Origin: Methanocaldococcus sp. 28A
Lineage (GTDB): Archaea > AGJL01 > Methanococci > Methanococcales > Methanocaldococcaceae
Strand: one strand, 5' to 3'
NCBI GenBank assembly: GCA_049852185.1
Contig: CP187540.1
DNA length: 64,000 bases
The position numbers and the translations under genes are program-made. Positions 52,440 to 63,072 of the stretch are shown here, piece after piece; position 1 is the first letter of the stretch, and every line of letters begins with the position of its first letter. The notes beneath the pieces are model-generated. The model did no database searches. It saw nothing but the letters and a program-made list of their open reading frames with translations, and was not told where the DNA came from.

Positions 52440-53134
52440 GAGGTTGTCAAGATAAGGATTAAATAAATATGTGTAAATAAAGGAAGATATGAAACTTACG
52501 ATAGAAACGTTAAAAGAAAGGATTAAGAAGATAGTTAAGAGGAATAAGAAGTCGATAGAGATTAAAATCTTAGCAGGAATTTTGTATTATCTGGGATTAT
52601 CGTTAAGAAAGGTTAGTTTGTTTCTTTCACGGTTTGAGAGCATAAGCCATGAATCGGTTAGAATATATTACCACAAGATTAAAGATATTTTAAACGAGCC
52701 TGAAAGAAAGACAAGAAACCTAATTGCAATCGATGAAACTAAACTAAAGCTTGGAAATGAAACTATTTATGTATGGTCTGCTATCGATGTGGAGTCTAAA
52801 GAATGTTTGGGTATCTATGTCTCTAAAACAAGATGTTATCTCGATACTATGTTATTCGTAAGAAGGATATTAAAATTTTGCTCGAATAAACCAAAAATTT
52901 TGGTTGATGGTGGTAAATGGTATCCGTGGGCTCTACAGAGATTAGGCTTAAAATTCGAAAGAGTTCGATTCGGTTTAAGAAATTGTGTCGAAAGTTTCTT
53001 CTCTCTACTCAAACGAAGAACCAAATCTTTCTATAACCGATTCCCTAATAACTCTAAATTCTCATCTGTCATTAGTTGGCTTGAATCTTTCTCCTCTTTC
53101 TATAACTTCTTCCTTTACTTATCTTGACATCGTC
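52440..53134 (+). mobile_element. IS6-family insertion sequence with 9-bp target duplication
   Basis: IRs GAGGTTGTCAAGATAAG / CTTATCTTGACATCGTC; ACGAAAGTT at 52431-52439 and 53135-53143. Confidence 0.9.
52489..53127 (+). CDS. IS6-family transposase
   Basis: [28 protein letters not shown]. Confidence 0.92.
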
Positions 53135-55195: not shown

Positions 55196-55903
55196 CTATT
55201 CACTATATTTCTTAACAACTTTTGTTTGGACATTTCCTTTGGTTATTTTGTTTAGATGAGCATAGAACTCTGCTTCAATACCACTTGGTATTTCAATTAA
55301 TACAATTAAAGAACCATCTGGTTGCCATTCTTCTTGTTTAACAGCTCCAAATTGATATAAAGCATTATATGCCTTAGAAGCAAATTCTGCAGGAATTTTG
55401 ACAGCAATATCTCTCTTTTCAAATCTAATTGGTAAAAGTTTTTTAAGCTTTTTAACAATTTCAGGAACTTGTTCTTCAGCACTTTTGTAAATGTCAATAT
55501 TAATTCTTAACTCTTCAATTGCCTTTTCAATTCTATGTGGTGGATGTGGAGTATCTGTTTGTGGGTTTATGGTGTTTCTACTAATTATGGTTATAATTTG
55601 TCTTTTCTTTTGTTCTCTAATTTCTTCTCTCTGCTTAGCAGTTAATTGAACTTGACCTTTTAATATAATTTTTTTAGCAATTTCTTTAACATCAGTAGTC
55701 CCAAAAACTTTTAATAAAATATCTTCAGGGGCTTTTTCCCCTTTATTTGCGTCTCTAAACACTACTTCAACAGCTAAAAGCTCATCCATATCTACATTTT
55801 GACCTTCTTTAAGTTTAGCTGCTAAATATGGGTCAACTAAAATTTCAAATTTTTCGCCATGTGAATTATATCTTGCAATTACAGCCTCTTCTAAGGACAC
55901 CAT
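55196..55903 (-). CDS. Ribosome maturation factor SBDS/Sdo1
   Basis: AVIARY, GEKFEI, GQVQLT, PHPP. Confidence 0.93.
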
Positions 55904-55945
55904 AATATCCCTCCCTACATTATATAAATGTTTCGGATTATCAAT

Positions 55946-56220
55946 TTAAATATTTTCTCTTTTTTCATTTAAGCCCAAATATAATGTATAGTACTGCAGT
56001 ATAATTGTCATCTTTCCAATATAGTTTGGGGAGTAATGTCTCCATAACCTATTGTTTATTTTTGGATTTGCTCCATTCTCAGCCAACCCTATAAAACGTG
56101 ACAATATGAAACTAAATATTTAAATTATTGTTATAAAGTTAAGAGTTTCAGAATATATCAAATAATATAGTTTTAATTAACCCTAAACTGACAAATGCTG
56201 ATGCTGTTGTTGATTGTAAT
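55946..56220 (-). pseudogene. Potassium channel remnant
   Basis: One frame reads LAENGANPKINN; a shifted frame reads TIGYGDITPQT (selectivity filter near 56023-56055); the pore helix is missing; ends approximate. Confidence 0.65.
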
Positions 56221-56316
56221 GAATAAAAATGGTTTTAGAAAAATATTTTAATATGGAAAAATATAATACACTAAGAATAATGTAATTATAATTTTAATTT
56301 TATGTAGGTGGAGATA

Positions 56317-56910
56317 ATGGAACTTGAAGAAGATCTAAGGAGGACTGTAGAATTTCATGGACATCTTTGTGTTGGGTTGGCTTTAGGTTATAGAGTAGCA
56401 AAATATGTTAAAAAATATTATAAAAGGTCTGAAGATGAAGAACTAGTAGCAATAGTATATAATAACTCATGTAGTGTGGATGCTATTCAGTATTTGTTAG
56501 GTTGTACATTTGGTAAAGGGAATTTAATATTTAAAGATTATGGTAAGCATGTATATATCTTTTTTTCAAGAGAAAATGAAAATAAAAAAGGATTAAAAAT
56601 AACTTTTAAAGATTTTTTATTTGAAGAAATAAATGAAACAAGAGATTTATTAAAAGATATTGAAAACCCTGAAGAAAAGAAAAAATATATTGAAGATTTA
56701 AAAAATAAATGTATAGAGAAAATTCTAAGTCTATCAGATGAGGATCTTTTAATTATAAAAGAAGTAGAAATTCCTGAACCTAAAAAAGCTAAAATTTATC
56801 CATCAATTAAATGTGAAGAGTGTGGAGAGTATTTTATGGAAATTAAAGGAAGACTGATTAATGGAAAAATAGTTTGTATAGAATGTTTTAAAAAATTAAT
56901 AGAAAAATAA
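56317..56910 (+). CDS. FmdE-family protein with C-terminal zinc finger
   Basis: FHGHLCVGLALG, CSVDAIQ-GCTFGKGN, CEECGE...CIEC. Confidence 0.9.
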   Translation: MELEEDLRRTVEFHGHLCVGLALGYRVAKYVKKYYKRSEDEELVAIVYNNSCSVDAIQYLLGCTFGKGNLIFKDYGKHVYIFFSRENENKKGLKITFKDFLFEEINETRDLLKDIENPEEKKKYIEDLKNKCIEKILSLSDEDLLIIKEVEIPEPKKAKIYPSIKCEECGEYFMEIKGRLINGKIVCIECFKKLIEK

Positions 56911-56926
56911 AAAATAAAAAAGATTC

Positions 56927-57526
56927 TTAAACTGATACTTTTTGTTTTGAGAAATAATATGATCTGATAAATTTAGCCACATATCTTGCTACATAATCTC
57001 CAACGAATCCAGATACTATTGATAATATTAACGCAATAATTACTCCTGATAAAGTATAGTATGATGACCAGTGAGGATATACTGCTATAGTATAGTAACA
57101 AATCCAATTAATAATCATAAATACCGCAAGTCCTACAGCACCATTAAATCTCTCTGTTAAGTAACCCAGAACTAATGCAGATATAATTCCAATAATACTA
57201 TACCATGTAGGAACTACAATACTAAACCATGGGCCCTCTAAAAGATAAAATGAGGCCAGTAATAATGAAACAACAATTCCATAATATTTTCCACATAACT
57301 CCTTAGCAAGAGTTATCCAGAATATATAGTATATCCCTCCAAATATTGCAGGTCCTAGGAATGGAGCATGTAACCAGGATGCGAATGTACTTTCTCCTCC
57401 AGCTGCAAGACTTATAAAATACCCAATACTTGCGAATATAAAGGAAACTCCAAGTTTAGCGATACTATTTGTGATTACTGGAGTGTGCTCATTTACATTA
57501 CCAGATACAGTATCTACAGATGTCAT
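56927..57526 (-). CDS. Integral membrane protein (about 6 TM), ECF S-component-like size and topology
   Basis: 199-aa hydrophobic protein whose start overlaps the radical SAM gene end; family uncertain. Confidence 0.6.
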   Translation of the reverse strand: MTSVDTVSGNVNEHTPVITNSIAKLGVSFIFASIGYFISLAAGGESTFASWLHAPFLGPAIFGGIYYIFWITLAKELCGKYYGIVVSLLLASFYLLEGPWFSIVVPTWYSIIGIISALVLGYLTERFNGAVGLAVFMIINWICYYTIAVYPHWSSYYTLSGVIIALILSIVSGFVGDYVARYVAKFIRSYYFSKQKVSV

Positions 57527-58334
57527 TTTTTTTCACCATCTTTTTTATATATTGAATATGTCTTTTCCTTAATTCACTATATGAAGTTCTTGCATCTCCT
57601 AAAGAGTCTTCAGTTAGATAAACACACGGAGATTGCATACAATCCCATCGAACAAATATACAGTTTAGTAATATTCTACAGGGCGTAGTATGAGGAAGTG
57701 GTGGATAGATTTTTATTTTATTTTTATATTTTGACAATAAATTAGTTAAAAATTCTTTTTCTTCTTTTGACGTTAATCCATACTTTACATCAGGATCTAC
57801 TCCATAGATATCAAATAATCTATGTAACACAATTCCATCAACACCTAATTCTATCCCTACATCTATAATTTCTGGAATATGGTCTAAATTATCCTTGAAC
57901 ATAGTAACATCAATATAGGTAACTAATGGAATATCCCTTTCATTTCTCTCCTCAATAAGTTTTTTTATATTTTCTAAAACTTTTTCTTTTCCATCTAATG
58001 AAAATATACCAAATGCGATTTCGTCTAATCCACTATTTAATATTTCTTCTAATCTTTTATCGAGTAATGTTCCATTAGTACAAAGACTGGCTTTAATGTT
58101 TAACGATTTTACATAGGAGACCATTTTAAATAAATCTGGATGAAGAAGACATTCACCCCAACCATGCAACGCCACTTCATTAAAATCTTTAAGAGGCAAT
58201 TTTTTGAAATCTTCAAATGACATATACCCTACAGGTCTATTTAAATGACGTCTCATACAAATTTTACAGTTACTATTACAGTCATTAGTCGTCTCCACTT
58301 GTAATATTTTAGGCTTTATTATAAATGAAATCAT
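57498..58334 (-). CDS. Radical SAM protein with SPASM/Twitch-like C-terminal Cys domain
   Basis: CNSNCKIC, HGWGE, TNG, C-terminal PC...SPC...CRYC. Confidence 0.88.
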   Translation of the reverse strand: MISFIIKPKILQVETTNDCNSNCKICMRRHLNRPVGYMSFEDFKKLPLKDFNEVALHGWGECLLHPDLFKMVSYVKSLNIKASLCTNGTLLDKRLEEILNSGLDEIAFGIFSLDGKEKVLENIKKLIEERNERDIPLVTYIDVTMFKDNLDHIPEIIDVGIELGVDGIVLHRLFDIYGVDPDVKYGLTSKEEKEFLTNLLSKYKNKIKIYPPLPHTTPCRILLNCIFVRWDCMQSPCVYLTEDSLGDARTSYSELRKRHIQYIKKMVKKNDICRYCIW

Positions 58335-58468
58335 ATTATTCACATTATAATTTTTTAAACTTTTTAAAATTTTTATTAATTAATTTTATTATTATTTATT
58401 AATATCAACATTAAATTGGGGTATTAAAATAATTTATATAAAAAAATTAAAAATAAAAGACCAAGATG

Positions 58469-58621
58469 TTATGATCTACTTAAGACTGGAATTTTTAATG
58501 AATCTTTTATAGCTAATAACATAGCTCCTACTAAGGCGGCAATTCCTACAACTTGTGCAATTGAGAATGCAGTTATTATAGTTGATGCTGAAACTGTAGT
58601 TACTGAAACTGGAGCACACAT
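58469..58621 (-). CDS. Small hydrophobic peptide B (50 aa, MCAP start)
   Basis: MCAPVSVTTVSASTIITAFSIAQVVGIAALVGAMLLAIKDSLKIPVLSRS; GGAGGTGA RBS. Confidence 0.85.
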   Translation of the reverse strand: MCAPVSVTTVSASTIITAFSIAQVVGIAALVGAMLLAIKDSLKIPVLSRS

Positions 58622-58670
58622 ATTTCTCACCTCCAAAAAATTTTATAAAAATTTAAAAATATATAAAGAC

Positions 58671-58835
58671 TTAGTTTGAAGAGACACTTTTAGCTTTTGC
58701 AATTTCTGAAGCTTTAGCTGAAGTTATTGCCATAATTCCTACAAGTCCTAAAACTATCATTCCTATTATTTGTGGGAGGACTAATCCAAGAGTTGGAACA
58801 CCAGTTCCAGTAGTTATTGCTATTGGAGCACACAT
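58671..58835 (-). CDS. Small hydrophobic peptide A (54 aa, MCAP start)
   Basis: MCAPIAITTGTGVPTLGLVLPQIIGMIVLGLVGIMAITSAKASEIAKAKSVSSN; GGAGGTGA RBS. Confidence 0.85.
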   Translation of the reverse strand: MCAPIAITTGTGVPTLGLVLPQIIGMIVLGLVGIMAITSAKASEIAKAKSVSSN

Positions 58836-58880
58836 ATTTCTCACCTCCAAAAAATTTTACAATAATTAAATGTTACTTGC

Positions 58881-58935
58881 AAATATATAAACTTTTCTGT
58901 GAAAAATTTTTATAAAAATCATAAAATTTATGATT
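58881..58935 (-). promoter_or_regulatory. Putative BRE/TATA promoter and palindromic operator for the MCAP peptide genes
   Basis: Minus strand AAAAGTTTATATATTT at 58881-58896; AATCATAAA-A-TTTATGATT at 58917-58935. Confidence 0.45.
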
Positions 58936-58991
58936 AATAATTATGTAAAGTAATAATATAATGTTATAAAAATAAAAAGAAGAAAGTTAGT

Positions 58992-60404
58992 TTAGTGCTC
59001 TATTTGGTACAAGACAGCTGGTAAAGGAGTTTCATTTAATTTACCTTCTTTTGCAAGTTTTAATATATTCTCTGCCTCAGGTTTGAAATATTTTGCCCAA
59101 CCGACAAGTTGTGCTTTATCATACCATGTTTTTAAATTTAACTCATCTACAGCTTTTTGGGCATATTTTATTGAGTCATTCTTATCTCCTAATTTAGCAT
59201 ATGTAAACGCAGCCATTTCAGTACCTAAGAAGTAATAGTTTTCATGTGCAATTGATCTGTCAGAGATGTTCCAGTAGTTTGAAAGGTATAAGAAGTCATT
59301 TAATGCTTTTTTGTAATAACTTTTATTTCCAGTGTATTCTCCAAGGTAGTAGTATGCCAATCCTCTTTCATAATGTCCTACTGGTAAGTCACCTGGATAG
59401 TGATCTCCACCATCTTCTGTCATTCCTGTAGAGTACTCAACATTTGCTAAAAGGTTTTTTATAGCATCTTTTTTATCTCCTCTTTTCATATCTACCATAG
59501 CAATGTATCTGTGAGCCTCTCCAATATATGGTGAATCAGGATAATCATTTATTATTTTATTACATAAGTTAAGTACCTCATCATATTTACCAAGTTCATA
59601 AGCGGAAACAGCAGTAGGCATATATCCTAAATCCATAGCCCAACCATATTTTGGTCCATAATCGTCAATAAATTTATGACAGTAGTAATATGCAGTTGAG
59701 TAATTTGCATTACCAAATTCTGAATTTATTATGTATGACCAAACATAGTGCTCGTATGCTGGACCTTCCGGTGCAATATTTACTGATAAATTATAGTAAT
59801 ACAATGCTGTTGGGAATTCCCCCATAGCCAAATAAGTTCTTGCAGTATTTGCATATAACGTTGCTAAAGCCCCTTTTCCACCATATTTTTCAAGTACGGG
59901 AATATTTTGCATTGCTTTAAAGTAGTATGGTAATACTTTATTTTTTCTATCAGGATATGAATCATAGTAGAAGTAATTAGCATCTCCAATTCTTACATAA
60001 CCTAATGCTTTTGCTTCAGGCATTAAGTTCATAAATCTCTCAACAGCATAGATACCTTCATGATAATATTTATCTTCCTGTTCTAAGCCATCTTGTTTGT
60101 ATGTATGGTATGGGAATTTATCATAATGGTGGAAGTGATCTTGATTGATATACACATTCGCTAAATTGTACCAAGCCCATGGATAGTTTGGATCAGCCTC
60201 TATAGCCTTTTTTAATAATTGTTCCGCGATTTTATACTCTGTCATGTTACTATTTGCTATAGCATCTCTAACTATTGGAACTGCTTCATTAGTATATTTT
60301 ATAGCAGTTGCTTCTGCAGAATATGTTTTGTAAGCATCTACTGCTAAACCTAACGCCAATGCAATGCATATAATACCTATTATTAACTTTACGTAATTTT
60401 TCAT
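58992..60404 (-). CDS. Exported or membrane-anchored Tyr-rich tetratricopeptide-repeat protein
   Basis: N-terminal signal/TM; TPR patterns KAIEADPNYPWAWYNLANVY and LGKYDEV...YPDSPY. Confidence 0.8.
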   Translation of the reverse strand: MKNYVKLIIGIICIALALGLAVDAYKTYSAEATAIKYTNEAVPIVRDAIANSNMTEYKIAEQLLKKAIEADPNYPWAWYNLANVYINQDHFHHYDKFPYHTYKQDGLEQEDKYYHEGIYAVERFMNLMPEAKALGYVRIGDANYFYYDSYPDRKNKVLPYYFKAMQNIPVLEKYGGKGALATLYANTARTYLAMGEFPTALYYYNLSVNIAPEGPAYEHYVWSYIINSEFGNANYSTAYYYCHKFIDDYGPKYGWAMDLGYMPTAVSAYELGKYDEVLNLCNKIINDYPDSPYIGEAHRYIAMVDMKRGDKKDAIKNLLANVEYSTGMTEDGGDHYPGDLPVGHYERGLAYYYLGEYTGNKSYYKKALNDFLYLSNYWNISDRSIAHENYYFLGTEMAAFTYAKLGDKNDSIKYAQKAVDELNLKTWYDKAQLVGWAKYFKPEAENILKLAKEGKLNETPLPAVLYQIEH

Positions 60405-60522
60405 ACATAACCCCCCTACTATTTACTAAATTATTTCTTAATTGTAATAAAATTAACATGATATAAGTTGGAGGTAGAGGTATATATATGTAACTATTTG
60501 ATATATCCAAATGTGTATATTA

Positions 60523-60830
60523 TTTTTGAGATAAACCTCGTAAGGAGTTTTAAAATCACTACGTAGTAAGCGAGCAACGAAAACCTTAGGTTTTCGTCTA
60601 ATCTAAAGAAAGATATGGTTTTATTTTACTATGCCATTTATTAAACTTATTTAGTCGATATTCTACTTCTCTATTTATTCGTTCAACTTTATCAATTGTT
60701 TTAGGATGTCTAACGGAAGTTCTTATGTGTTCAATATTATGCTCTGCAAGAAACTTCTGGAATTTGGATATACCTCATTTTGCAGGAACGAATTGAGTTC
60801 CATTGTCTGTTAATATTTTCTCTAGCAATC
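60523..60830 (-). pseudogene. IS481-like integrase-core transposase remnant
   Basis: Minus-strand ILTDNGTQF; 60524-60620 matches the reverse complement of 31131-31180. Confidence 0.65.
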
Positions 60831-60943
60831 TATATGACGATTTGAAACAGTTGAGCAGATATAACAACAAATCACAAAAATTAAATAAAGGGAAAGTAAT
60901 AGAAGAATTTCTAAAATAAAAGAGTTTAAGATATACGTTTTAT

Positions 60944-61708
60944 TTATTCTTTATTTTTTTCTTCTGTTCTCTTATTTTCTTCATTTAATTTATTTTTAAC
61001 TTTCTCTATGAGTTTTTTTATTTCTTCTACAGAGATTTTCTTAAATTGTGAATCTTTAACTGTTATTACACAAACATCAACATTTTCTGCTTTTATATCT
61101 TCATTTGCTTTTGCTAATGCAGTTATGGCTAACTCTAAACCTTCGTCTAATGTTATATCATCTTTATACTCTTTTTCTAACAACTCCATAACTACAGGTC
61201 TTCCACTACCAATTGCAGTCGCTTTATATTCAATTAAAGCCCCACTTGGGTCTGTTTCAAATAATCTTGCTTCATTTTTATCAATTCCAGCAATTAATAA
61301 TGAAACTCCAAATGGTCTAACTCCTCCATGTTGTGTATATGCTTGTTTAATATCGCAAATTTTTTTTGCTAACATTTCAATTGATATCTCTTCTCCATAA
61401 GTTAATCTGTAAATCTGAGCTTCCAATCTCGCTCTATCAATTAAGACTCTTGCATCAGCGACTAATCCAGATGTAGCAGCTGCTACATGGTCATCAATTT
61501 GGAATATCTTCTCTATTGACCTAATTTTTACGAGTTTGCTTGTTATTCTTCTATCAACCGCTAATACAACACCATCTTTACAGGCAATACCTATCGCTGT
61601 AGTTCCTCTCCTTACAGCCTCTCTTGCATATTCTACTTGATATAATCTACCCTCCGGACTAAATACTGTAATTGCTCTATCATAAGCACTTGGTGGTACC
61701 ATTTGCAT
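60944..61708 (-). CDS. psmA: Proteasome subunit alpha
   Basis: [31 protein letters not shown]. Confidence 0.97.
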
Positions 61709-62389: not shown

Positions 62390-63072
62390 TAGAAAATTTT
62401 TCGTTAATAATCTATTGTGATATTCTTTTTAAGGAATATTCGTTGCTTAATCATGTGAAGGAAATTATAGACTTTACTATTAACGATTTAGAAATAAATC
62501 CATCTAATATTGTAGTACTTACCGATAGAGAGTTTAAAAATTTTGAAATAATAAAAATTTTTGAAAAATACGGATGTAATTACATAAGCTTTATTCCGAA
62601 AAATGATAAAGTTAAATACTATCTTGAGGATGAATATAAAAAAGAAGAAAAATGGAAATTCGATTATGTTATCGATAGAAATACTATTCCTAAATTAGTT
62701 ATTGCTGAGGACGAAATAATTACAAACAACGAAAGAAAAAAGGTATATTATACCTTTTTAACTAATATCAACTTTGAAAATCAAGAATCTTACATAAAAA
62801 TGTATAAAAAACGATGGAATATTGAAACACAATTTAGAATGCTTAAAGATGCAGTTATAAAAACGAATTTAACATCTATAAAAGTTAGGTTGTTCCTTTT
62901 TATGCTTAAATGCGTTATTCATAACTTATAGATTAAAATAATAAAAAAGAATGTGTTTTTTTAAAATTCTTCATAATCGAAATATGTAAGTTATTAAATA
63001 AATTCGATTATTCACTCATGGTTATGCGTAATACTCGGTTGTGTATGTCTAATGCATATTCATAAGATACTG
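62390..63072 (+). pseudogene. ISH3-like transposase remnant (3' half with right end)
   Basis: ORF 62443-62931 with LTDREF and YKKRWNIETQFR; right end ...AGATACTG as at 52412. Confidence 0.7.

Follow-up and report, generated by a model that had tools for sequence, protein, structure and literature searches.

The SBDS and psmA genes of this Methanocaldococcus genome are separated by an undescribed gene set that recurs across many anaerobic archaea. It appears to be a horizontally mobile and widely conserved cassette, whose core would be a minimal radical SAM/Twitch enzyme together with one or two peptides that lack a leader, begin M-C-x-P and are some 50 residues long. The explanation that we favour, by a modest degree, is that the enzyme modifies Cys2 of these membrane-anchored peptides within a larger membrane module, a modification that we infer from gene neighbourhood alone. 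The cassette thus probably makes a cysteine-modified membrane peptide, and its function is possibly related to metals. Database entries call the homologues only "radical SAM protein" or "hypothetical protein", and our literature search found neither a family name nor an earlier description of the cassette, in keeping with the remark in an earlier note on this DNA that no archaeal system of such layout had been described.

Within the window (the whole 64,000-nucleotide stretch that was analysed), the island occupies about 5 kb between the end of SBDS at 55903 and the start of psmA at 60944. A TPR protein, peptide A, peptide B, the radical SAM enzyme and a membrane protein follow one another on the minus strand, and an FmdE gene is convergent with the membrane-protein gene. 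This is the content and order given in the earlier note, and it is borne out by the open reading frames and by Pfam, which matched TPR repeats, Radical_SAM, FmdE, SBDS and proteasome alpha in the window; nor did either source reveal a peptidase, RRE or ABC ATPase within the island, again as noted before. That the block is an insertion is clear from the synteny of 25 Methanococcales genomes: psmA directly adjoins SBDS in 19, lies outside the 1.5-kb flank in 4, and is separated from it by the cassette only in G000 and G005.

The remnants once proposed to mark the borders were recovered in part. The left spacer (55904..56307) holds, at about 55946-56104, a weak tblastx similarity (about 40% over two short stretches of 42 and 26 residues, E 1.5e-5) to C1:778318-778560 of the same genome, in a gene for a 209-residue protein that carries TVGYGD, the K+ channel filter motif. 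In the right spacer (60405..60943), pieces at about 60516-60764 are 85-91% identical by blastn to at least ten other sites in the genome, so a dispersed repeat is indeed present; the IS481 identity assigned to it was not confirmed, its 31- and 26-residue fragment ORFs having no Pfam match.

Peptide A (54 residues, 58671..58835, minus strand) begins M-C-A-P and continues into a hydrophobic span and then a basic or polar tail; peptide B (50 residues, 58469..58621, minus strand) shares this start and has a conserved Gln in mid-helix. The two are paralogues (profile-profile hhalign probability 97%, E 6.8e-11), and neither belongs to a Pfam or NCBIfam family. Orthologues of peptide A occur in all eight Methanococcales cassettes. 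Each gene has the Shine-Dalgarno sequence GGAGGTGA 6-7 nt 5′ of its ATG-TGT start, a repeated upstream stretch is common to both, and by eye each also has a candidate TATA-like box, TTTATATA for peptide A (58884..58891, minus strand, about 48 nt upstream of the start) and a similar one for peptide B (58660-58667, about 39 nt before the start). Across the 98 unique peptides of the loci, M1, C2 and P4 never vary, and residue 8 is T in 78 of them and S in another 13. A net positive charge marks the final 15 residues of 96% of peptides (mean +2.9), the opening 15 being roughly neutral, and types A and B each retain a distinct pattern of intramembrane residues across phyla (alignments A5 and A4). 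Judged from these sequences, the peptides are leaderless and look membrane-resident, like conserved membrane anchors.

Reading frames this short, unannotated in most records and without a Pfam or NCBIfam family, might be chance ORFs or annotation artefacts in a meaningless neighbourhood. That idea is effectively refuted and we give it almost no credence. Of the 5958 ATG-initiated ORFs of 30-100 residues in the whole 1,555,991-bp genome, 2 have the strict N-terminal motif, both in the island (the loose form MC.P occurs nine times), and all 16 peptide genes listed for the eight Methanococcales cassettes have a ribosome-binding site. A search of public data with a profile of the peptides further found 36 predicted proteins at E <=0.001 (best 2.6e-14), and 102 such peptides, with M, C and P unvarying at positions 1, 2 and 4, were found in 56 of 58 loci of the radical SAM family.

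The enzyme itself (281 residues, 57498..58343, minus strand, with the true start probably the ATG at 58334) carries the CxxxCxxC motif and is Twitch-like, with four C-terminal Cys residues that are invariant among its homologues. Radical_SAM (PF04055) was matched at 55 bits against a cut-off of 29.5. SPASM/Twitch radical SAM enzymes frequently modify small peptides encoded next to them, often at Cys, and the structure model (pLDDT 92) is consistent with such a role: its Foldseek neighbours include BlsE, SkfB (6efn, E 7.7e-12, TM 0.72), SuiB, CteB (5why, 5wgg), PqqE, BtrN and anSME (4k36-4k39), among which SkfB and CteB are Cys-modifying. Against a peptide substrate, the best solved relatives by sequence are BlsE, GDGT-MAS, BtrN and NifB, which act on small molecules or lipids, and its highest NCBIfam scores, far under the cut-offs, are to metalloenzyme "maturases" whose chemistry is unknown.

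The company kept by the enzyme argues for peptide maturation. At least one M-C-x-P peptide accompanies it in 56 of the 58 loci, which come from Methanococci, Thermoproteota, Archaeoglobi, ANME-1, Altiarchaeota and other archaea, and at least two do so in 42; 89 of the 102 peptide genes are no more than 500 bp away from that of the enzyme, and the two loci lacking a peptide (L061 and L065) are cut contigs with ANME-type gene order. The membrane protein is encoded in 44 loci, the TPR protein in 39 and an FmdE domain in 18. In Methanococcales, the same 8 of 41 genomes carry the enzyme, the membrane protein and peptide B, although such locus and genome counts overstate independent support because related genomes are not independent. 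The phylum labels should also be read with care, as those of metagenome-assembled genomes may be unreliable: L040 and L041 bear different ones and have identical peptide and FmdE proteins. The proposed coupling of enzyme and peptides, and the co-occurrence of the genes elsewhere, are thereby upheld. The distribution is patchy and island-like. The ANME-1 loci L072 and L062 contain tandem modules in which TPR and peptide genes have multiplied together.

The export that the earlier note envisaged for a RiPP or metal-acquisition system deserves separate consideration. The twins could form a two-peptide archaeocin or signal akin to sactipeptides or ranthipeptides, which would leave the cell once the radical SAM enzyme had matured it, with the S-component-like membrane protein (described below) serving in immunity or export and the TPR protein as an accessory. 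Two-peptide sactibiotics such as thuricin CD do exist; the adjoining SPASM/Twitch-type enzyme has SkfB, CteB and SuiB among its fold neighbours; the strong ribosome-binding site and candidate TATA-like box of each peptide gene suggest a high ratio of peptide to enzyme; and the patchy distribution and the repeat remnants at one border would suit such a system. We nevertheless regard it as improbable. In every one of the 98 unique peptides the invariant motif begins at residue 1-2, leaving no leader, and the CxxxCxxC motif begins at residue 22 of the enzyme, too near the N-terminus for an RRE to fit. The 950 other ORFs of the 58 loci include no recurrent family of peptidases, ABC exporters or other export proteins, and the ABC ATPases of nine loci are heterogeneous and variously placed. 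With Cys at residue 2, the peptides are therefore not leader-plus-core precursors, and the conservation of both types across phyla, with anchor-type basic C-terminal tails, is unlike that of fast-evolving antimicrobial cores. A classical exported RiPP thus has less in its favour than the earlier note suggested.

The membrane protein (199 residues, 56927..57526, minus strand) has no Pfam or NCBIfam family, and its gene begins 29 nt before the enzyme gene ends; the same arrangement, directly downstream with overlapping ends, is seen in 41 of the 58 loci. Its six-helix model (pLDDT 88.4) has the fold of an ECF-transporter S component: the top 13 chains in VIA-align are all S components (Z 14.9 to 9.6, the next chain 7.1), and Foldseek and Atlas agree. 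Nearest are the vitamin-type YkoE, ThiT, PanT and RibU, with NikM (Z 9.6) and CbiM (Z 7.0) lower. No His, Cys, Asp or Glu stands among its invariant or near-invariant columns, and there is accordingly no obvious metal ligand. Co-folding with a peptide, as had been proposed, gave ipSAE 0.32 for peptide B (runs 0.32, 0.36 and 0.26; best of three controls 0.00). Of 80 solved complexes 58 attain the mark, as do 2 of 110 mismatched pairs, and scores of 0.60 or under account for only 7 of the 80 solved complexes and for both passing mismatches. The runs share at least 94% of contacts with partner pLDDT of at least 62, and the model weakly supports the pairing.

This fold raises the possibility that the peptides are not substrates at all but unmodified small subunits of an S-component-like membrane device, their M-C-x-P loop acting like the M-H-x-P loop of CbiM/NikM, or the peptides like CbiN, while the enzyme acts on a small molecule or metallocofactor that is taken up or delivered. 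NikM has an additional N-terminal helix, which inserts a conserved nine-residue loop into the pocket so that Met1 and His2 of the loop bind Ni (PMC3945884), and the CbiM of the present genome starts M-H-I-P where the peptides start M-C-A-P. The gene overlap in 41 loci and the small-molecule and metalloenzyme relatives of the enzyme point the same way. Even so, we consider this reading unlikely, if a less remote prospect than secretion: the peptides are tied more tightly to the enzyme (56 of 58 loci) than to the membrane protein (44 of 58), and the protein is less like NikM/CbiM than vitamin-type S components and has no conserved metal ligand, two points that also weigh against a metal role in general. 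Neither EcfT nor EcfA is encoded in any of the 58 loci, and the only CbiQ of the genome lies beside CbiM some 670 kb away. Since the membrane protein is absent from 14 loci, including ANME-1 loci with long flanks that keep enzyme and peptides, it is not essential to the core.

The remaining two proteins are a TPR-repeat protein and an FmdE-domain protein. The former (470 residues, 58992..60404, minus strand; TPR_2, TPR_19 and other TPR families) is anchored to the membrane at its N-terminus, and because all listed homologues have a basic and then hydrophobic N-terminus, the positive-inside rule predicts that its bulk lies outside the cell. The latter (200 residues, 56308..56910, plus strand; PF02663 at 137 bits, with a C-terminal zf-dskA_traR zinc finger) is of cytoplasmic type and has the FHGHxC motif, which is metal-binding (PMC2954224); according to the same paper, most PF02663 genes adjoin metal-ion transporter genes, a tendency that hints at a metal role for the cassette and would also suit peptides acting as unmodified subunits. 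Long FmdE forms also occur: all seven scanned match PF02663, and all six listed have a signal-like N-terminus and a C-terminal anchor. The inclusion of FmdE in the system holds to the extent that it adjoins the cassette in 18 of 58 loci, but 27 of 41 Methanococcales genomes, a good number of them cassette-free, have the short orthologue, which is located elsewhere in G004, G014, G024 and G034 and was not found in the cassette-bearing G009. In Methanococcales it is an accessory, loosely linked part.

Returning to the peptide-maturase explanation, several steps can be envisioned. The cytoplasmic enzyme would recognise the invariant N-terminal octapeptide directly, with neither leader nor RRE, and modify Cys2, most likely by a thioether to a nearby residue (as in SkfB/CteB) or by Cys oxidation (as in anSME). 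The product would be kept rather than released: its hydrophobic span and basic C-terminal tail would retain it in the membrane, and the modified N-terminus would face outward. There it may meet the co-translated S-component-like protein, the outward TPR protein and, in many lineages, the metal-binding FmdE-domain protein, the parts together forming a membrane module that possibly captures or handles a metal or cofactor.

Known systems resemble the cassette in part. NikM/CbiM with their small partners CbiN/NikN combine an S-component fold with an N-out transmembrane helix and an invariant N-terminal loop, as the cassette is predicted to do; in the cassette, however, helix and loop are separate peptides, Cys replaces His, T and A components are not adjacent, a radical SAM enzyme belongs to the set, and the membrane protein, with no conserved ligand residue, is structurally closer to vitamin-type S components. 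The best NCBIfam match of the enzyme is TIGR04317, the tungsten cofactor oxidoreductase radical SAM maturase (E 1.9e-31, residues 11-245); at 109 bits against a cut-off of 380 the enzyme is not a member, and the island has no AOR-type gene. With QhpD/QhpC, the radical SAM cross-linking system for the small gamma subunit of quinohemoprotein amine dehydrogenase, the likeness is one of concept: Cys thioethers are formed by a SPASM enzyme in a small subunit, which then functions outside the cytoplasm in a larger complex. The Qhp system, however, belongs to the bacterial periplasm and comes with an exporter and a peptidase of its own, and the subunit does not serve as a membrane anchor. SkfA/SkfB (the Bacillus subtilis sporulation killing factor) and CteA/CteB, of sactipeptide or SCIFF type, also place a SPASM/Twitch-class enzyme beside a small Cys peptide. 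In the SkfA and CteA precursors, an RRE binds an N-terminal leader, which is subsequently removed, and an ABC system exports the product; in the cassette, by contrast, Cys is residue 2, RRE, protease and exporter are missing, and the peptide looks membrane-resident. Finally, anSME enzymes share the radical SAM structural class and act on a short, leaderless C/S-x-P-x-R motif, of which the peptides keep Cys and Pro invariant and lack the +4 Arg (S, A or Y instead). The cassette enzyme is about 100 residues shorter than anSME, with four auxiliary Cys against at least seven, and no anSME family is among the 25 listed of its 31 matched NCBIfam families. The substrates of anSME are sulfatases, whereas the candidate substrates here are 50-residue membrane peptides.

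The cassette is an insertion between two genes that are otherwise commonly found side by side. Its left neighbour, SBDS (55196-55903), and its right neighbour, psmA, which encodes proteasome alpha (60944-61708), are both Pfam-supported and lie directly adjacent in 19 of the 25 genomes entered in a synteny comparison; the cassette separates them only in the genome under study (G000) and a close relative (G005), and it occupies other positions in G001, G004, G014 and G024. The proposal of the earlier note that the block had been inserted between psmA and SBDS is thus borne out, and the gene order it gave is reproduced by the ORF calls. The minus strand carries a TPR protein of 470 aa (58992-60404), peptide A of 54 aa (58671-58835), peptide B of 50 aa (58469-58621), a radical SAM protein of 281 aa (57498-58343) and a membrane protein of 199 aa (56927-57526), the first 29 nt of whose gene coincide with the end of the enzyme gene; an FmdE protein with a zinc finger (200 aa; 56308-56910) is encoded on the opposite, plus strand and converges on the membrane protein gene. 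The TPR, Radical_SAM, FmdE, SBDS and proteasome alpha assignments were confirmed with Pfam and NCBIfam, in neither of which did peptides A and B or the membrane protein match a family.

At the left border there is a weak K+ channel-like remnant, as had been supposed; the IS481 label given to the right border was not confirmed, since Pfam was empty on its 31- and 26-aa fragments, and what is found there are only fragments of a repeat dispersed over at least 10 genome sites. This repeat (window 60516-60764), which may be a MITE or an IS end, is represented by pieces of about 50-120 bp that are 85-91% identical, with copies at, among others, C1:1504621-1504869, 119503-119754, 635763-636007 and 1138017-1138265. 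IS elements are abundant around the island, and the wider flank holds a DDE_Tnp_IS240-type transposase gene at window 52489-53127 (+; E 3.7e-11) and a DDE_Tnp_1 transposase fragment at window 62443-62931 (+; E 3.9e-10). The search for RNA families in 55500-61200 returned a single sub-threshold snoRNA-like match and hence no riboswitch, and a promoter and terminator scan gave 36 sites against 33.7 expected, with bacterial-type models that are uninformative for an archaeon. Membership in a defence system was considered and rejected: PADLOC found no match for five of the six island proteins, and residues 18-119 of the radical SAM core alone match its pVip models.

The cassette is real, conserved, mobile and archaeal. 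Orthologues of the enzyme (67-96% identity, E < 1e-100) are present in 8 of 41 Methanococcales genomes, namely G000, 5 of 16 others of the same genus and 2 of 13 of a second genus, and profile searches place the membrane protein and peptide B in the same eight and in none of the remaining 33, so the co-occurrence that the earlier note had looked for does extend to other genomes. Both peptides, enzyme, membrane protein and TPR protein are all retained at each of the seven other loci, where the TPR gene stands either upstream or downstream. Two side observations concern the history of these copies. The enzyme gene of G024, a Methanothermococcus (C1:66053-66882; L019 8021-8883), has an internal TAA stop while the peptides, membrane protein and TPR gene are still open, and the cassette may be decaying there. 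The island FmdE is 76% and 72% identical to its orthologues in G034 and G024, both of the second genus, against 60-64% for those of its own genus other than the near relative G005, and the enzyme leans in a similar direction (G034, 80%); this greater closeness hints at acquisition of the island from a donor of the second genus.

Beyond Methanococcales, a scan for the enzyme in one genome per GTDB species returned 66 loci. Clear family members account for 54 of these (38-96% identity, E 2e-60 or better); the 12 weakest (L074-L085), which are partial matches with E 5e-15 or worse and carry bacterial labels in 11 cases, were left out of all tallies. The 54 cassette-bearing, species-level archaeal genomes come from hydrothermal and anoxic settings, and their record titles assign them to Methanococci (4), Thermoproteota groups (11), Archaeoglobi (13), ANME-1, Methanophagales or Methanoxibalbensis (6), Altiarchaeota (2), Methanosarcinales (2), Thermoplasmata, Micrarchaeota, Baldrarchaeota, Methanobacteriota and Halobacteria (1 each) and 'uncultured archaeon' (11). 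Loci L040 and L041, on contigs labelled Micrarchaeota and Baldrarchaeota, have identical peptide and FmdE proteins, and MAG binning or taxon labels may be unreliable here.

Gene content was tallied by iterated HMMs and a motif scan over 58 loci (L020-L073, the window, L017, L018 and L019), among which related genomes are non-independent observations and L020, L021, L022 and L024 are the same places as the cassettes of G005, G034, G004 and G009. At least one M-C-x-P peptide is found in 56 of the 58 loci, which agrees with the earlier expectation of such ORFs near relatives of the enzyme, and at least two in 42; the two peptide-less loci are on short contigs that break off at the point where the peptides stand in ANME-type loci. 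The membrane protein is encoded in 44 loci, in 41 of them directly downstream with overlapping coding ends, the TPR protein in 39 and an FmdE-domain gene in 18, and peptide, membrane protein and TPR protein occur together in 29. Of 102 peptides, 89 lie at most 500 bp from the enzyme gene. Clustering of the 950 other ORFs in these loci revealed no other recurring family except heterogeneous ABC ATPases, which were rejected as cassette parts, being present in 9 loci at varied positions. No peptidase family was found among these ORFs, as the earlier note had it for the island, and no dedicated protease or exporter of the classical RiPP kind recurs in the 58 loci. Nearly every SPASM/Twitch-class enzyme of this family thus has its counterpart in a small-ORF family whose short motif contains an invariant Cys, a pattern expected of a radical SAM enzyme with a candidate peptide substrate.

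Both peptide genes begin with ATG-TGT, 6-7 nt 3' of GGAGGTGA, and have a TTTATATA box, read by eye, 39-48 nt upstream; the two genes also have a duplicated upstream stretch in common; longer, TTG-initiated versions of the ORFs are a read-through of the ribosome-binding site. The strict N-terminal motif is met by only 2 of 5958 ATG-initiated ORFs of 30-100 aa in the 1.556-Mb genome, both being peptides A and B, and a six-frame search of the whole genome for the motif without a start codon recovers the same two only. M1, C2 and P4 never vary across 98 unique peptides (median length 50 aa; 'hypothetical protein' at most in public annotations). Residue 3 is mostly A (74 peptides, against T in 19 and V in 5), and residue 8 mostly T (78 peptides, with S in 13). 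All 98 have the invariant motif from residue 1 onward, which is not the arrangement of a leader-plus-core precursor. Type A peptides have a Pro within the hydrophobic span and type B peptides a Gln or His at mid-helix; the two are homologous (hhalign probability 97%), and both persist across phyla. In 96% of the unique peptides the final 15 residues carry a net positive charge, and the first 15 are about neutral; we infer from the positive-inside rule that the C-terminal tail is cytoplasmic and the N-terminus faces outward. Hydrophobic span, basic tail and deep conservation together argue that the product stays in the membrane.

The enzyme belongs to the radical SAM superfamily (PF04055, 55.2 bits against a cut-off of 29.5), and C22, C26 and C29 of its CxxxCxxC motif are nearly invariant among 28 family members. 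SPASM domains carry a C-terminal seven-Cys motif for two auxiliary clusters. PF13186, the SPASM model, is absent from the window enzyme at E <= 0.01 and is precomputed for only 2 of 29 close clusters, so the enzyme does not fall in the SPASM subgroup proper; its only invariant C-terminal Cys are C222, C240, C276 and C279. Twitch-type enzymes have a shortened C-terminal domain in which about four Cys bind one auxiliary cluster. These four Cys, combined with a fold like that of the BtrN, SkfB and MoaA class, fit a single predicted auxiliary cluster of Twitch type rather than seven-Cys SPASM. The AlphaFold model is confident (pLDDT 92), with Foldseek probability 1.00 to BlsE, SkfB, BtrN and MoaA, and the nearest solved folds are BlsE, SkfB, SuiB, CteB, DesII, PqqE, BtrN, MoaA and anSME; by sequence, matches among solved proteins are distant only (BlsE, GDGT-MAS, BtrN and NifB). 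The best NCBIfam match, the tungsten-enzyme maturase W_rSAM_matur (TIGR04317), was rejected at 109.4 bits against a cut-off of 380. Because CxxxCxxC begins at residue 22 of 281, there is no room for an N-terminal domain of RRE size, nor does any extra small domain protein that could be a classical RiPP recognition element recur in the 58 loci. The family is small: in a set of 5.8 billion proteins clustered at 90% identity it makes up 29 clusters, which are named only 'radical SAM protein'.

The membrane protein, encoded 3' of the enzyme, is modelled with six helices (pLDDT 88.4) and has the six-helix fold of an ECF S component: VIA-align gives Z 14.9 to 5edl (rmsd 3.9 over 161 residues), and the top 13 chains among the representatives are all S components (Z 14.9-9.6), with the next chain at 7.1. 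Foldseek agrees (probability 0.93-0.99, though E is 0.13 or worse), as do the Atlas structure rows (TM 0.62-0.64), while no Pfam or NCBIfam S-component family is matched by sequence at E <= 0.01. Metal S components of the NikM/CbiM type have a seventh, N-terminal helix in the same chain, an M-H N-terminus and a His ligand in the body. Membership in this type was considered and rejected: only six helices are present, His, Cys, Asp and Glu are absent from all invariant or near-invariant columns, and NikM2 (Z 9.6) and CbiM (Z 7.0) both score below vitamin-type S components. An N-terminal loop of the NikM/CbiM type is mimicked only by the peptides, in trans. No ECF T component recurs among the clustered ORFs of the 58 loci, and the sole CbiQ of the genome stands beside CbiM at C1:1.27 Mb, about 670 kb from the island; the membrane protein may share that module or act alone. 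That CbiM (G000:C1:1271289-1271912, -) starts M-H-I-P-D-G, in parallel with the island M-C-A-P. Co-folding gives the pairing of membrane protein and peptide B weak support: ipSAE is 0.32 against 0.00 for the best of 3 controls, with at least 94% of contacts shared between runs and partner pLDDT at least 62. Of 80 solved complexes 58 pass the mark used, as do 2 of 110 mismatches; at 0.60 or below, only 7 of the 80 pass, together with both of those mismatches.

Every full-length TPR homologue has an N-terminus that is basic and then hydrophobic, which places the TPR repeats probably outside the cell. ANME-1 loci contain tandem TPR-plus-peptide modules, three and a partial fourth in L072, an arrangement which suggests that TPR protein and peptide act together. 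Loci of this type (L072 8038-14806, L062 8045-12416, L071 7297-9474 and L067 2634-2789), with such tandem modules, lack the S-component-like gene; a second type of MCAP peptide is found in them, 52-56 aa long and rich in aromatic residues along its hydrophobic span. As a separate observation, 26 of 38 full-length TPR proteins (window 58992-60404 and L017-L073) end in [E/S]-His, all from loci that also hold the S-component-like gene, and 9 of the 12 with other endings come from loci without it; the ending may be a functional C-terminal tag or ligand.

The FmdE protein is a member of its family by score (PF02663, 137.3 bits against 22.9) and by an FHGHxC motif, and Axelrod et al. 2010 (PMC2954224) describe this motif as coordinating metal and most PF02663 genes as adjoining metal-ion transporter genes. 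Outside Methanococcales, the cassette-linked FmdE proteins are 375-528 aa long; PF02663 matched 7 of 7 long forms scanned, 6 of 6 inspected have a signal-like N-terminus and a C-terminal anchor, and an Atlas search with a long form found FmdE clusters only (scores up to 0.76). The short Methanococcales form is a single orthologue present in 27 of 41 genomes, many without a cassette. Only three genomes have it next to the cassette: G000 and G005, where it is convergent, and G001, where the arrangement is another. It lies away from the cassette in G004, G014, G024 and G034, and was not found in cassette-bearing G009. Because it occurs without the cassette and at separate positions, we treat it as an accessory, loosely linked part. 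Neighbours of the orthologues that lie elsewhere vary and give no clear functional lead, those in G024 being a tetrapyrrole methylase, an AI-2E transporter and an AOR-like protein. The cassette-free G006 has the orthologue at the head of a same-strand gene row (L111, C1:523500-531500) with an ArsR-type regulator, an MMPL-type membrane protein and a CARDB/DUF11 protein.

No description of the cassette was found in the main texts of the literature searched or in database names, consistent with the earlier statement that no described archaeal system with such a layout was known. To our knowledge, peptide-modifying radical SAM enzymes are known almost entirely from bacteria, where they act on leader-plus-core precursors. 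One passage on 'dark matter island' families includes a radical SAM arCOG and a TPR arCOG 'outside of any conserved context' (PMC4158269), not necessarily those of the cassette, and another source mentions ranthipeptide-type clusters expressed in an Alkanophagales MAG (PMC13635244), not necessarily the same cassette. Judged from its genes, the cassette is a candidate for radical-SAM peptide maturation of a new form with unprecedented partners: a leaderless putative substrate with its invariant Cys at residue 2, an enzyme pared to core and Twitch domain, and, as fixed partners of this pair, an S-component-like membrane protein and a surface TPR protein. The unannotated cassette provides a small, tractable enzyme-peptide pair in which to look for new radical chemistry and for a rule of recognition that needs no leader. 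It also suggests what an orphan S-component fold might do beyond ECF transport, and connects in a testable way to the FmdE family, which is still unexplained. Should the product handle metals, it would bear on the trace-metal supply of vent archaea under sulfidic conditions.

One specific function can be envisioned, although we think it improbable. In NikM/CbiM, an extra N-terminal helix puts a conserved loop into the S-component pocket, and Met1 and His2 bind the metal (PMC3945884). Since this loop parallels the peptide N-terminus, the cassette might be an analogue of the NikM/CbiM metal-capture site that is split and based on a thiolate. The ~50-aa peptides would supply an outward-facing helix and the invariant M-C-x-P loop in trans, and this loop would insert into the pocket of the S-component-like protein, with Cys2 turned into an unusual ligand by the radical SAM enzyme. 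A scarce metal, sequestered by sulfide in hot anoxic habitats, would be passed on by the surface TPR protein and the FmdE-type metal-binding protein. If true, this would be the first function for a leaderless, N-terminally modified radical-SAM peptide, and uptake or sensing devices that depend on a peptide cofactor would form a new class.

Set against known systems, the candidate maturation pathway departs from RiPP logic, which relies on a leader, an RRE and a protease or exporter; the cassette appears to have none of the three. The CbiM of the same genome starts M-H-I-P where the island peptides start M-C-A-P. For recognition, the closest analogy is anSME acting on a Cys-x-Pro motif. The substrate motif of anSME is C/S-x-P/A-x-R; in these terms C-x-P is invariant in the peptides, but position +4 is S in 63, A in 18, Y in 15 and never R. 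Sactipeptides and ranthipeptides are marked by a thioether from Cys sulfur to carbon in the mature product. For chemistry, the closest analogies are the thioethers of SkfB and CteB, or oxidation of the anSME/BtrN type.
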